A stretch of 32,167 nucleotides of DNA from a phage: the NCBI GenBank assembly GCA_021683455.1, contig GCA_021683455.1_3051.2. The stretch is one strand, 5' to 3'. The translations under genes were made by a program, and so were the position numbers. Positions within the stretch are counted from its first letter, which is position 1. Each line of letters begins with the position of its first letter. Shown here piece after piece: positions 21,913 to 29,900 of this stretch. The notes beneath the pieces are model-generated. The model did not search any database, was not told the origin of the DNA, and saw only the letters and a list, made by a program, of their open reading frames with translations.

Positions 21913-22176
21913 ATGTTTAAAGTATATGGTTATGATAGCAACATCCATAAATGTGTGTATTGTGATAATGCAAAACGTCTTTTGACCGTGAAGAAACAGC
22001 CGTTTGAATTTATCAACATTATGCCGGAAAAAGGTGTTTTTGATGATGAGAAAATCGCTGAGCTTCTGACTAAACTAGGTCGTGATACTCAAATCGGCTT
22101 GACAATGCCCCAGGTATTTGCTCCTGATGGAAGTCATATTGGTGGATTTGACCAACTGCGAGAATATTTTAAATGA
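21913..22176 (+). CDS. nrdC: phage thioredoxin/glutaredoxin (ribonucleotide reductase hydrogen donor)
   Basis: 87 aa with CVYC redox motif; matches T4 thioredoxin as I recall it (MFKVYGYDSNIHKCVYCDNAKRLL...). Confidence 0.9.
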   Translation: MFKVYGYDSNIHKCVYCDNAKRLLTVKKQPFEFINIMPEKGVFDDEKIAELLTKLGRDTQIGLTMPQVFAPDGSHIGGFDQLREYFK

Positions 22177-22388
22177 TGCTCGAAGGAACTGACTATATTC
22201 ATGATTACCGCGGAAGCGCGGTATATGTAGGTGATGAAGTTGCAGTTTATTATGGGTATGGAACTTTGATGACAGCCAAGGTTATTCAAATTAAAAATAA
22301 TCGTGCTAAACTCGAAGTTTATTATTCTAATGGTGAAAAGTCTATTTCTAAGTGGAAATACGGCGATTGTATGGTTAAATTGGGGTAA
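22173..22388 (+). CDS. hypothetical protein
   Basis: ATGA overlap with nrdC stop; 71 aa. Confidence 0.5.
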   Translation: MMLEGTDYIHDYRGSAVYVGDEVAVYYGYGTLMTAKVIQIKNNRAKLEVYYSNGEKSISKWKYGDCMVKLG

Positions 22389-23543: not shown

Positions 23544-24017
23544 ATGTTATTGACTGGCAAATTATATAAAGAAGAAAAACAGAAATTTTATGATGCACAA
23601 AACGGTAAATGCTTAATTTGCCAACGAGAACTAAATCCTGATGTTCAAGCTAATCACCTTGACCATGACCATGAATTAAATGGACCAAAAGCAGGAAAGG
23701 TACGTGGATTGCTTTGTAATCTCTGTAATGCCGCAGAAGGTCAAATGAAGCATAAATTTAATCGTTCTGGCTTAAAGGGACAAGGTGTTGATTATCTTGA
23801 ATGGTTAGAAAATTTACTTACTTATTTAAAATCCGATTACACCCAAAATAATATTCACCCTAACTTTGTTGGAGATAAATCAAAGGAATTTTCTCGTTTA
23901 GGAAAAGAGGAAATGATGGCCGAGATGCTTCAAAGAGGATTTGAATATAATGAATCTGACACTAAAACACAATTAATAGCTTCATTTAAGAAGCAGCTTA
24001 GAAAGAGTTTAAAATGA
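23544..24017 (+). CDS. 49: recombination endonuclease VII (Holliday-junction resolvase)
   Basis: 157 aa; N-terminal Cys cluster CLICQ...HLDHDHELNG...CNLCN; matches T4 gp49 as I recall it. Confidence 0.9.
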   Translation: MLLTGKLYKEEKQKFYDAQNGKCLICQRELNPDVQANHLDHDHELNGPKAGKVRGLLCNLCNAAEGQMKHKFNRSGLKGQGVDYLEWLENLLTYLKSDYTQNNIHPNFVGDKSKEFSRLGKEEMMAEMLQRGFEYNESDTKTQLIASFKKQLRKSLK

Positions 24018-25831
24018 CAATTGAAAAAGAAATTGAAGGATTGATTCATAAAACTAATAAAGACCTTTTAAACGAGAATGCTAATAAAGATTCTCGTGTT
24101 TTTCCAACTCAACGGGACCTTATGGCTGGTATTGTGTCTAAACACATTGCCAAAAATATGGTCCCGTCTTTTATTATGAAAGCGCATGAAAGCGGAATTA
24201 TTCATTTCCACGATATTGATTATTCCCCTGCTCTTCCATTTACTAATTGTTGTTTAGTAGATTTAAAAGGAATGCTTGAGAACGGATTTAAGCTTGGTAA
24301 TGCACAGATTGAAACTCCTAAATCAATCGGTGTTGCTACTGCAATTATGGCACAAATTACTGCACAGGTTGCTTCCCATCAATACGGCGGAACGACTTTT
24401 GCTAATGTAGATAAAGTACTTTCTCCTTATGTTAAACGCACCTATGCAAAACATATTGAGGATGCAGAAAAATGGCAAATCGCTGATGCGTTGAATTATG
24501 CTCAATCTAAAACAGAAAAAGATGTATACGATGCATTCCAAGCTTATGAATATGAAGTAAATACTCTCTTTAGCTCAAACGGACAAACACCTTTTGTAAC
24601 AATTACATTTGGTACAGGAACTGACTGGACTGAACGAATGATTCAGAAAGCAATTCTGAAAAATCGTATTAAAGGTCTTGGTCGTGATGGGATAACTCCT
24701 ATTTTCCCTAAACTTGTTATGTTCGTTGAAGAAGGTGTTAATCTTTATAAAGACGACCCGAACTATGATATTAAGCAGCTTGCTTTAGAGTGCGCAAGCA
24801 AAAGAATGTATCCTGACATCATTTCGGCTAAGAACAATAAAGCTATCACCGGCTCATCTATTCCTGTTTCTCCAATGGGTTGTCGTAGTTTCTTGAGCGT
24901 ATGGAAAGATTCGACTGGCAATGAAATTCTTGATGGACGTAATAATCTCGGTGTTGTAACACTGAATCTTCCTCGTATCGCATTAGATTCTTATATTGGA
25001 ATACAGTTCAATGAACAGAAATTTGTTGAATTATTCAATGAACGAATGGATTTATGTTTTGAAGCTTTGATGTGTAGAATTAGTTCCTTAAAAGGAGTTA
25101 AAGCGACTGTTGCTCCTATTCTTTACCAAGAAGGTGCATTCGGGGTTCGTCTTAAACCTGATGACGATATAATTGAGTTATTTAAAAATGGCAGAAGTTC
25201 AGTGTCTCTAGGATACATTGGTATTCACGAATTGAATATTCTTGTCGGTCGTGATATTGGACAGGAAATTTTAACTAAAATGAATGCTCGTCTTAAGCAG
25301 TGGACTGAAAGAACCGGATTTGCTTTTAGTTTATATTCGACTCCTGCTGAAAACCTTTGTTATCGCTTCTGTAAACTCGATACCGAAAAATATGGAAGTG
25401 TAAAGGATGTTACCGATAAAGGCTGGTACACTAACAGTTTCCATGTTTCAGTAGAAGAAAATATTACTCCGTTTGAAAAGATTTCTCGCGAAGCGCCGTA
25501 TCATTTCATTGCGACAGGCGGTCACATTTCTTATGTTGAACTTCCAGATATGAAAAACAATTTAAAGGGTCTTGAGGCTGTCTGGGATTATGCTGCACAA
25601 CATTTAGATTATTTTGGTGTTAATATGCCGGTAGATAAATGTTTTACATGCGGAAGTACCCATGAAATGACTCCTACTGAAAACGGATTTGTTTGTTCTA
25701 TCTGTGGAGAAACTGATCCTAAAAAGATGAACACAATAAGAAGAACATGTGGTTATTTGGGAAATCCAAACGAACGTGGATTTAATCTCGGTAAAAATAA
25801 AGAAATCATGCATAGGGTTAAACACCAATGA
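24014..25831 (+). CDS. nrdD: anaerobic (class III) ribonucleoside-triphosphate reductase
   Basis: 605 aa; C-terminal glycyl-radical motif RRTCGYLG and Cys cluster CFTCGS...CSICG; ATGA overlap with gene 49. Confidence 0.97.
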   Translation: MTIEKEIEGLIHKTNKDLLNENANKDSRVFPTQRDLMAGIVSKHIAKNMVPSFIMKAHESGIIHFHDIDYSPALPFTNCCLVDLKGMLENGFKLGNAQIETPKSIGVATAIMAQITAQVASHQYGGTTFANVDKVLSPYVKRTYAKHIEDAEKWQIADALNYAQSKTEKDVYDAFQAYEYEVNTLFSSNGQTPFVTITFGTGTDWTERMIQKAILKNRIKGLGRDGITPIFPKLVMFVEEGVNLYKDDPNYDIKQLALECASKRMYPDIISAKNNKAITGSSIPVSPMGCRSFLSVWKDSTGNEILDGRNNLGVVTLNLPRIALDSYIGIQFNEQKFVELFNERMDLCFEALMCRISSLKGVKATVAPILYQEGAFGVRLKPDDDIIELFKNGRSSVSLGYIGIHELNILVGRDIGQEILTKMNARLKQWTERTGFAFSLYSTPAENLCYRFCKLDTEKYGSVKDVTDKGWYTNSFHVSVEENITPFEKISREAPYHFIATGGHISYVELPDMKNNLKGLEAVWDYAAQHLDYFGVNMPVDKCFTCGSTHEMTPTENGFVCSICGETDPKKMNTIRRTCGYLGNPNERGFNLGKNKEIMHRVKHQ

Positions 25832-26298
25832 ATTATGATAGATTTTATCCTTGCGATTTTGTGAATGGCCCTGGTTGCAGGGTCGTTCTTTTCGTTACAG
25901 GTTGTTTGCATAAATGTGAAGGGTGTTATAATAAATCAACATGGAATGCTAGAAATGGTATTCCATTCACTGGTGAAACACTAGAACAATTAATTGAATG
26001 TTTGAATAATGATTATATAGAAGGATTAACTATAACTGGGGGTGACCCTCTTTATCCTGATAACAGAGACGTGATTCACTCTGTTGTTCAAACTATTAAA
26101 AATCTTTATCCCAATAAAAGCATTTGGTTGTGGACAGGATATAAGTTTGAAGATATTAAACAACTAGAAATGCTTAAATATGTTGATGTTATTATTGATG
26201 GGAAGTATGAGAAAAATCTTCCGACTAAAAAGCTGTGGCGAGGATCAGATAATCAGCGACTTTGGTCAAATACCGATGGGGTGTGGACACATGATTAA
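25828..26298 (+). CDS. nrdG: anaerobic RNR activating enzyme (radical SAM)
   Basis: 156 aa; Cys motif CLHKCEGC; ATGA overlap with nrdD stop. Confidence 0.93.
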   Translation: MNYDRFYPCDFVNGPGCRVVLFVTGCLHKCEGCYNKSTWNARNGIPFTGETLEQLIECLNNDYIEGLTITGGDPLYPDNRDVIHSVVQTIKNLYPNKSIWLWTGYKFEDIKQLEMLKYVDVIIDGKYEKNLPTKKLWRGSDNQRLWSNTDGVWTHD

Positions 26299-26413
26299 AT
26301 TGAATTACATTATGGATACTATAAATGATATGATTTTTCATTTTGGTCCAGAATTTTATTCGCAATATAGTTTAGTGCTTATCAATGCTTGGTTAATCAA
26401 TTAAGGGTAAAAT

Positions 26414-26629
26414 ATGTATAAATTTCGTAAAGGTTTAGCTGATTTTCTTACAACTGTAACGTTCTTTCTGTTTATGGCAGTTGGAGCTATTTTCCTTATT
26501 CCTTTTATTGTTGTATTTTTCGTGATTAGTTTAATTTCTCCAGAAAAGGGCTTATCTTCTAGTGAGTTCAATGAGCGTCTGGATAAAATTACTAACAAGC
26601 TGAATGCTGTTCTTGATAAAAAGGCTTAA
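26414..26629 (+). CDS. small membrane protein
   Basis: Hydrophobic core FLTTVTFFLFMAVGAIFLIPFIVVFFVISLI. Confidence 0.5.
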   Translation: MYKFRKGLADFLTTVTFFLFMAVGAIFLIPFIVVFFVISLISPEKGLSSSEFNERLDKITNKLNAVLDKKA

Positions 26630-26631
26630 TT

Positions 26632-26943
26632 ATGATTAGTTTTGAGCGGTATGTAGTAGAGAGTTGGAAGGGGTTTGATATGTTCGGTAATGACTATTAT
26701 TTTTACGAATGTAGTCTAAATCCTAGTTTTTGGGCTGGACGTGAACGAGATCTCGAAGAAATTAATGCTCGTGCCGAATTGTTAGGTGAACTGCCTACGG
26801 TTTATTTTACCTTTGATGCATCTGGATTTGTTATCCAGGTTTATTTTCCTGAAGAAAACTCTGGTGAGGATTCTGTTAATCCTCCTTATTGGGCTTACCA
26901 AGGAATTATTTCTCGTGGAACAAAACTCGAACTTAAAGAATAA
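26632..26943 (+). CDS. hypothetical protein
   Basis: 103-aa ORF. Confidence 0.5.
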   Translation: MISFERYVVESWKGFDMFGNDYYFYECSLNPSFWAGRERDLEEINARAELLGELPTVYFTFDASGFVIQVYFPEENSGEDSVNPPYWAYQGIISRGTKLELKE

Positions 26944-27238
26944 GATTGAAGTCTATGGAATTCCAGATGAAGTAGGTCGTTGTCCTGGATGTCAATCAGT
27001 TACAAAACTTCTAAAGGAGCTCAATGCTCCTTTTACTTTCTATAAAGTTCTTACTAATAATGGTAAGATTGAGTACGATCGCCCATTGATTGTATCTCTT
27101 GCTAAACGCGCTGGATTCACATCTCTTAATATTCGGTATCCTGTCATTTTCATTAATGATTCTAGACAAAAGAACATTAAACACTTCAAAGAAACTCTCA
27201 TTTCACTTGGATATGATAGAGATATCATAGAAGACTAA
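26915..27238 (+). CDS. nrdH: glutaredoxin-like protein (NrdH-like); start codon uncertain
   Basis: Domain begins KIEVYGIPDEVGRCPGCQ (CPGC redox motif); no in-frame ATG after upstream stop, candidates GTG 26915 or upstream ATG 26816 within previous ORF. Confidence 0.5.
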   Translation: MEQNSNLKNKIEVYGIPDEVGRCPGCQSVTKLLKELNAPFTFYKVLTNNGKIEYDRPLIVSLAKRAGFTSLNIRYPVIFINDSRQKNIKHFKETLISLGYDRDIIED

Positions 27239-27242
27239 GACG

Positions 27243-27265
27243 GGCCCTCTGGGCCTTTCTTTCTT
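27243..27265 (+). terminator. terminator-like hairpin (GGCCC-TCT-GGGCC + T-rich tail)
   Basis: 5-bp GC stem with TTTCTTTCTT. Confidence 0.55.
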
Positions 27266-27336
27266 ACATTCTGTATATTACCATTCTAAGCTATCGTTCC
27301 CTTCTTATCATTCCCTAAAATAATTTTCACAAAGTT

Positions 27337-27366
27337 GTTTACAACAAGTTCAAACCGTGGTATTAT
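27337..27366 (+). promoter_or_regulatory. early promoter (GTTTAC 27337-27342; TGGTATTAT 27358-27366)
   Basis: Follows terminator-like hairpin 27243-27265. Confidence 0.7.
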
Positions 27367-27396
27367 TAACATATGAATTACCTTTGAGGAATTGAT

Positions 27397-27573
27397 ATGA
27401 TTGATAAAGAGATTAAAATTGACCAGTACTATCGTGTTAACGGACATATCGTTATTGTTACAGCAGTCGATGATTTAGATGTTCATTATACTTTGCTTAA
27501 ATGGAACAAACGTTTGATTTGTGATCGTGCTGTATTTAGTTCAGTTGCTAAGGAAATTAAACTCCATGGGTAA
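27397..27573 (+). CDS. small hypothetical protein (58 aa)
   Basis: GAGGA SD then ATG 27397, after early promoter. Confidence 0.4.
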   Translation: MIDKEIKIDQYYRVNGHIVIVTAVDDLDVHYTLLKWNKRLICDRAVFSSVAKEIKLHG

Positions 27574-29698: not shown

Positions 29699-29900
29699 CC
29701 TCTCCGGATTCTTGGAAGAAATACCTGAAGTTGAAGCTATTCCCTATTTACTTAAAATGTATCTCAGGGAAGTTTTAGCTCTTGACATTGATATTGATCC
29801 AGAAAATCCGTATGATACCGCTTTTAAATCTAATGGTGTAGAATTAAACTATCGGTATCATTTAACAGATGATGATTTTTATTTTATATTAGAGAAATAA
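29682..29900 (+). CDS. small acidic protein
   Basis: 72-aa ORF overlapping gene 55 3' end. Confidence 0.45.

Follow-up and report, generated by a model that had tools for sequence, protein, structure and literature searches.

The glutaredoxin-like gene nrdH of a T4-like phage very probably starts at a conserved GTG codon inside the preceding gene

The nrdH gene of the phage DNA studied here (the window, a single stretch of 32,167 nt) has no ATG close to the point at which its glutaredoxin domain begins. The missing ATG is a real feature of the sequence, but it is explained: judged by comparison with phage T4 and other relatives, translation of nrdH very probably starts at GTG 26915, a codon that lies within the 3′ end of an upstream 103-aa gene and follows a Shine-Dalgarno (SD) sequence embedded in the same gene. 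A GTG-started nrdH is already annotated as such in public records, and the arrangement is an ordinary and known one.

Results

The nrdH locus

The region 26300-27400 is 100% identical to phage NBEco003 (Tequatrovirus; RefSeq NC_055831), and the 1.1 kb around nrdH is 95-99% identical to 473 further T4-like phage records. On the strength of these identities we assign the window to a T4-like phage of the genus Tequatrovirus. The gene order, which runs nrdD, nrdG, a small ORF, 55.8, an optional gene, nrdH, a terminator and 55.6-like genes, is as in T4 (Table 1). Window nrdD is uninterrupted (605 aa) and overlaps nrdG in an ATGA at 25828-25831; T4 nrdD carries the I-TevII group I intron, and the homing-endonuclease gene mobC is found between T4 nrdD and nrdG. 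When the window was set against NC_055831 99912-132078, the annotated starts aligned from ~23.5 kb to 32.0 kb. The first ~23 kb of the window are not collinear with that record and the ungapped comparison fails there, which suggests that the window comes from a related but different genome, or that there are indels upstream.

The terminator scan placed a hairpin at 27242-27256 (GGGCCCTCTGGGCC), followed by a T tract, directly after nrdH. The record of phage DalCa has a rho-independent terminator annotated at this site, and those of ATK48 and NRG-P0074 have one in the matching position 3′ of nrdH.

Start codons other than ATG are used sparingly in this part of the genome. The NBEco003 stretch equivalent to the window holds 70 CDS starts, and 68 are ATG, one is GTG (nrdH) and one is TTG, making a non-ATG start a minority case in this stretch, not an anomaly. 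The single TTG lies at 29712, the same position in both sequences, and opens a gene for a 62-aa hypothetical protein just after gene 55.

Table 1. Features of the nrdH locus, in window coordinates
Feature	Positions	Strand	Basis
nrdD	24014-25831	+	window ORF list compared with NBEco003 annotation
nrdG	25828-26298	+	window ORF list compared with NBEco003 annotation
37-aa ORF	between nrdG and 55.8 homolog	+	
T4 gene 55.8 homolog, 71-aa predicted membrane protein	26414-26629	+	PHROG 1930, 1.7e-36
Upstream 103-aa gene, function unknown, phrog_2749	26632-26943	+	full-length PHROG match, 3.7e-49
Predicted Shine-Dalgarno AAGGA, 10 nt before GTG, within Gln-Gly codons of the upstream gene	26900-26904	+	predicted
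nrdH, 107 aa plus stop, T4-type 'NrdH glutaredoxin'	26915-27238	+	same ends in RefSeq NC_055831
nrdH initiation codon GTG (very probable)	26915-26917	+	homologous to annotated T4 nrdH GTG
Overlap of upstream gene 3′ end and nrdH 5′ end, 29 nt, two reading frames	26915-26943	+	
Active-site CxxC, Cys23-Pro-Gly-Cys26	26981-26992	+	sequence; both Cys invariant in 12 homologs
Conserved Pro76 (…RYPVIF…), equivalent of thioredoxin-fold cis-proline	27140-27142	+	aligns with T4 glutaredoxin Met-Pro
Intrinsic terminator directly 3′ of nrdH, GGGCCC-TCT-GGGCC then T-rich tail	27242-27266	+	terminator scan
Good early-type promoter, TTTACA, 17 nt, TATTAT with upstream TG	27338-27366	+	before next gene at 27397

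The start of nrdH

The preliminary description of this DNA had reported a glutaredoxin-like frame at 26786-27238 that lacked a canonical start, and its reading of the sequence holds. The mechanical ORF is stop-free, encodes 150 aa and opens with GTG 26786. Its domain begins at KIEVYG, with the K codon at 26942-26944 overlapped by the TAA stop of the upstream ORF at 26941-26943, and the ORF reading of the window contains no in-frame ATG between 26816 and the glutaredoxin domain. Both candidate starts that had been put forward are present, namely GTG 26915, 9 codons before K, and ATG 26816, 42 codons before K; use of the latter would indeed overlap the upstream gene by 128 nt. Among the explanations then left side by side, non-ATG initiation at GTG 26915 is the one that gained support, from homology to the T4 GTG, a conserved SD, in-frame stops in relatives and the pattern of substitutions.

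Both the SD and the GTG sit within the last 15 codons of the upstream gene (…YQGIISRG…). The predicted pairing of SD and anti-SD for GTG 26915 is -5.4 kcal/mol, compared with -3.2 to -6.2 for neighbouring genes, -2.4 for ATG 26816 and -0.9 for ATT 26945. The gap of 10 nt between the AAGGA core and the GTG is at the long end of the usual range. Around the nrdH start we found no RNA structure beyond chance (z -0.71), and an Rfam search of the start region gave no family match, only a chance-level snoRNA hit. The gene is annotated from the equivalent of 26915 in the RefSeq record of NBEco003 and, among the others checked, in DalCa, ATK48, F2, AV112 and Lv5cm. We propose that AAGGA 26900-26904 directs initiation at GTG 26915 and that the product would be a 107-aa glutaredoxin-fold protein with a CPGC active site, in which a short and variable 9-residue tail, MEQNSNLKN, would precede KIEVYG as the first β-strand.

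The closest point of reference is nrdH of T4 (T4p072, NP_049686, UniProt P07077), formerly described as an 'uncharacterized 11.8 kDa protein in Gp55-nrdG intergenic region'. Window NrdH and T4 NrdH are 98% identical, the main difference being a 5-residue indel in the N-terminal tail, and by tblastn the T4/T2-type records match residues 8-107 of window NrdH at 99%. The T4 gene (NC_000866 41805-42113) begins in its annotation with a GTG, whose context is taAGGAatagttGTGaaacaaaataagattgaag. It shares with the window gene its position after nrdD-nrdG-55.8 and before 55.6-type genes, the GTG itself, the AAGGA that precedes it and the terminator. The start reads AAGGAATAGTT-GTG-AAA-CAA-AAT-AAG-ATT-GAA-GTC in T4 and AAGGAATTATTTCTC-GTG-GAA-CAA-AAC-TCG-AAC-TTA-AAG-AAT-AAG-ATT-GAA-GTC in the window, and as we align them the SD, the GTG and the following codons are homologous, the spacer differing by an indel of 4 nt and the tail by one of 5 codons. 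Read from the GTG, the T4 N-terminus is MKQNK-IEVYGIPDEVGR, whereas the window tail is MEQNSNLKNK, with 5 extra codons.

What differs most between the two is the setting. The window has the extra 103-aa phrog_2749 gene between 55.8 and nrdH, and T4 is without it. The T4 SD overlaps with the final codons of 55.8, and the T4 GTG follows 2 nt after the 55.8 stop, whereas in the window both SD and GTG lie inside coding sequence. The T4 nrdH frame opens only 8 codons before K, and the sole NTG codon in it is the GTG. A time-resolved T4 proteome (PMC9697503, supplements 4 and 6) includes T4 NrdH (P07077) in its list of detected proteins; the short T4 frame hence does yield a protein. Tryptic proteomics of T4 cannot separate initiation at GTG from initiation at ATT because the first informative peptide begins after K. 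For the NrdH of either T4 or this phage, our search of the literature returned neither an N-terminal sequence or peptide nor ribosome profiling of initiation sites.

We read the same junction in 28 loci, 20 of them from Tequatro-, Mosig-, Gapriver-, Dhaka- and Kanagawavirus. All 20 have an SD, 5-10 nt, a GTG, then 3, 5 or 8 codons, and then (K)IE(V/I)YG. The sequence before the GTG is AAGGA(A/G) in 19 of the 20, and GAAGGT in the Kanagawavirus locus. Two of these loci leave little room for another start: in Gaprivervirus EAWsc9 an in-frame TGA stands between SD and GTG, 3 codons upstream of the GTG, Dhakavirus IME341 has an in-frame stop 11 codons before its GTG, and neither open frame offers an NTG codon other than the GTG. 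Kanagawavirus IME523 is annotated instead from an in-frame ATG six codons further upstream, and the exact start of nrdH in that lineage may differ from the GTG. Further away from this clade, an ATG 0-8 codons before the motif is used in the Jiaoda-, Roskilde-, Gelderland-, Karam- and Krischvirus loci and in the Klebsiella phages Roth17 and kv_tblp5, whose records give no genus.

The full-length window-type junction, consisting of the upstream gene, the embedded SD and GTG and the overlap, was present in 421 phage records, and the full-length T4-type junction, without the upstream gene but with the same nrdH GTG, in 213. Relatives that have the same arrangement and a documented start, which the preliminary description had named as grounds for refutation, are at hand at the level of annotation and comparative evidence. 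The comparison thus marks the GTG start as a trait conserved within one clade rather than a peculiarity of this genome. From GTG to K the tail (window 26918-26941) comprises 8 codons in the window type, 3 in the type of T4 and NRG-P0074, and 5 in Gapriver-, Dhaka- and Kanagawavirus; it is variable and its function is not evident.

The pattern of substitutions in 8 collinear relatives (86-98% identity) indicates which frame codes in each part of the locus. Between 26816 and 26914, 15 of 99 sites were variable, and 13 of the 15 fall on third positions in the upstream frame, where the glutaredoxin frame has its second positions. In the nrdH core (26944-27235) 67 of 292 sites varied, 47 of them at third positions of the nrdH frame. 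Only one of the 29 positions of the overlap, 26915-26943, was variable, as expected where two reading frames coincide. The upstream gene shows third-position bias in its own frame (25/31 and 13/15 variable sites), and the C-terminal tail WxYQG(I/V)ISxG is common to its homologs in Gapriver-, Dhaka- and Kanagawavirus. The 26786-26914 part of the mechanical ORF is, on this evidence, the +1 frame of the upstream gene and stop-free by chance.

The upstream gene varies in two further respects. In phages F2 and AV112 the TAA stop is replaced by CAA at the equivalent of 26941, which makes the gene two codons longer (…KEQD) and leaves the nrdH residue unchanged (AAT to AAC). That the stop falls exactly on the domain edge is therefore no conserved trait. 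The phrog_2749 gene is also polymorphic for presence and absence (421 records with it, 213 without). It occurs in loci from five genera, lies at 512-820 in the Kanagawavirus locus L016, and is unannotated in IME523, ATK48 and AV112.

Alternatives to the GTG start

Ribosomes that terminate at TAA 26941-26943 might reinitiate at ATT 26945 or adjacent codons, which would yield a 97-aa protein beginning at the domain edge. Bacteria do start translation at ATT, if rarely. The K codon just before this ATT is overlapped by the upstream stop, and an ATT follows K in most relatives. However, Dhakavirus IME341 has ATC and some Klebsiella and Krischvirus phages have ATA at this codon, and the upstream stop is not tied to it, having moved two codons in F2 and AV112 and lying elsewhere relative to K in EAWsc9, L016 and IME341. 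Furthermore, ATT 26945 has almost no SD, the 55.8 gene of T4-type phages stops 2 nt before the GTG and not at the ATT, and the tail from GTG to K is open and in frame in 20 of 20 clade loci. Reinitiation at the ATT is, in our judgment, improbable.

A longer protein of 140-150 aa would result from a start at ATG 26816 or GTG 26786, for example a membrane-anchored glutaredoxin with a hydrophobic extension. The frame is open from 26786, the nearest in-frame ATG is that at 26816, and the extension is hydrophobic as the preliminary description had it. That proposal nevertheless does not survive the comparison. With 13 of the 15 variable sites at second positions of the glutaredoxin frame, close relatives would differ by non-conservative replacements in the predicted extension, and what evolves in this segment is the upstream frame. 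In-frame stops interrupt the extension 3 to 17 codons before the GTG or K in EAWsc9, L016, IME341 and the T4 type, and T4 is without it. The SD pairing at ATG 26816 is -2.4 kcal/mol, in none of the records examined is such a start annotated, and the upstream gene is a full-length member of phrog_2749 with homologs, so that the 'hydrophobic 42-aa extension' amounts to a real gene read in the +1 frame. We consider a long start highly unlikely.

A frameshift had also been raised. If programmed, in the +1 direction and close to where the upstream gene ends, it would fuse the phrog_2749 protein to the glutaredoxin. The nrdH frame is +1 to the upstream gene and is open throughout the overlap. Against this, the 213 T4/T2-type records that lack the upstream gene keep nrdH with the same GTG, and Klebsiella phage Roth17 lacks it too and starts nrdH at an ATG. 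Reading of the overlap sequence revealed neither a prfB-like CUU-UGA nor any other slippery site; GAA, the codon in the P site at the stop, is unable to re-pair in +1; and the position of the stop shifts between relatives. The start region yielded neither significant RNA structure nor an Rfam match. As a programmed frameshift site the overlap was rejected, the fixed slippery site, stimulatory element and obligatory ORF linkage of such sites not being found, and we give the fusion almost no credence.

That a sequencing or assembly indel destroyed an original ATG is scarcely conceivable, for it has nothing in its favour beyond the missing ATG, the same junction recurs at 85-100% identity in 421 independent phage records, which excludes a sequencing artefact, and the homologous GTG is found in T4 and five genera.

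The NrdH protein

Read from GTG 26915, the 107-aa form of NrdH scores 23.8 bits against Pfam Glutaredoxin (PF00462), narrowly above the cut-off of 22.9, and the 150-aa mechanical ORF scores 22.5, just below it. The same model matches 11 of 12 NrdH homologs at E <= 0.01, and PHROG 22, 'thioredoxin domain', matches at E 5e-16. When a profile of the 12 homologs was compared with the PDB, it matched the solved T4 glutaredoxin NrdC (1AAZ) with E 1.3e-7 over residues 2-84 of its 87. This alignment begins at the I of KIEVYG, implying that the predicted fold needs nothing upstream of K. The residues C23, C26, Y75 and P76 are invariant in the 12 homologs. The earlier label of a glutaredoxin-like protein was thus well chosen. 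From the profile match to 1AAZ we infer a thioredoxin-type fold; a single-sequence AlphaFold2 model was poor (mean pLDDT 48.5).

These features suggest that NrdH is a small thiol-disulfide oxidoreductase encoded beside the anaerobic RNR genes nrdD and nrdG, and it may keep cysteines of NrdD or NrdG reduced. The T4 annotation describes NrdH as 'related to T4 thioredoxin but has glutaredoxin activity'. The literature that we searched yielded no primary data on a glutathione-dependent disulfide reductase activity of T4-type NrdH, and nrdH is mentioned only generically in PMC3653736.

NrdC, the T4 glutaredoxin or 'T4 thioredoxin' (1AAZ, 1ABA), is the closest solved structure to window NrdH and is of similar size. 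Its CVYC and the proline before β-3 align with CPGC and Pro76 of window NrdH. The two proteins nonetheless differ in active site (CVYC as against CPGC), their sequence similarity is low (phmmer E 5e-4), and window NrdH has N- and C-terminal tails (…LGYDRDIIED) that NrdC is without. The gene for NrdC is in another place, at 21914-22177 of the NBEco003 stretch that corresponds to the window.

Bacterial NrdH-redoxin (E. coli NrdH, the class Ib RNR reductant) has in common with window NrdH its name, an association with RNR genes and, as predicted for the window protein, a small glutaredoxin-like fold. However, window nrdH adjoins class III nrdDG, whereas the bacterial gene adjoins class Ib nrdIEF, and the motif is CPGC in the window protein and C(V/M)QC in the bacterial one. 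The NrdH-redoxin model TIGR02194 gave no match to window NrdH at E <= 0.1. The only NCBIfam match was a weak one to a YruB-family glutaredoxin-like model, at 16.1 bits against a cut-off of 88.55. By these measures window NrdH falls outside the bacterial NrdH-redoxin family, and the name 'NrdH' is historical.

Within the nrdH coding sequence we also observed a strong SD, AAAGGAG, 5 nt before an out-of-frame ATG at 27024 (within window 27013-27089). A hydrophobic ORF of 21 codons (MLLLLSIKFLLIMVRLSTIAH) starts at this ATG, and there is a terminator-like hairpin at 27013-27033. The internal SD is kept only in Tequatro- and Mosigvirus and is absent in other genera. Where it is kept, the NrdH residues encoded there are conserved as KELNAP (KELNVP in one locus). 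The arrangement is probably just a side effect of the coding sequence.

Discussion

The layout described here, in which the ribosome-binding site lies inside the upstream coding sequence and a non-AUG codon starts the downstream gene, is that of overlapping phage genes common in T4-like genomes, for which coupling is probable. The 29-nt overlap in the window is longer than the ATGA or TAATG overlaps of 1-4 nt that are frequent among neighbours, such as nrdD/nrdG, and is nothing unusual. Since ribosomes that finish the upstream gene would traverse the nrdH start site, some translational coupling of nrdH to that gene, one of the options in the preliminary description, is plausible and seems likely.

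How the two forms of the junction arose is a more tentative matter. With loci from five genera carrying the phrog_2749 gene, T4 looks to have lost it by a deletion that spared the ribosome-binding site of nrdH. It is conceivable, though we would not favour it strongly, that the embedded start is ancestral for the clade of Tequatro-, Mosig-, Gapriver-, Dhaka- and Kanagawavirus, and that the T4 GTG is a relic of a codon that was once locked in place, with coupling setting the ratio of the two products. A deletion would then have removed the phrog_2749 gene from T4 and left its last codons as the ribosome-binding site of nrdH. The GTG would persist because the Arg/Cys-Gly codons of the upstream gene (CGT-GGA or TGT-GGx) originally fixed it in place, and a weak start together with coupling would fix a low ratio of NrdH to the upstream protein.

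For annotation, these results mean that gene callers should retain GTG 26915 as the start of nrdH and avoid extending the gene to ATG 26816 or over the whole 150-aa mechanical ORF, and that the small phrog_2749 gene is missing from the annotation of several deposited genomes. Beyond such annotation hygiene the importance of the finding is slight. The name deserves some care, as the phage 'NrdH' appears to be a T4-NrdC-like glutaredoxin, which matters wherever RNR reductant pathways are inferred from names. If the embedded start is in fact ancestral, the fixed ratio would hint that NrdH and the phrog_2749 protein act together with the anaerobic RNR.
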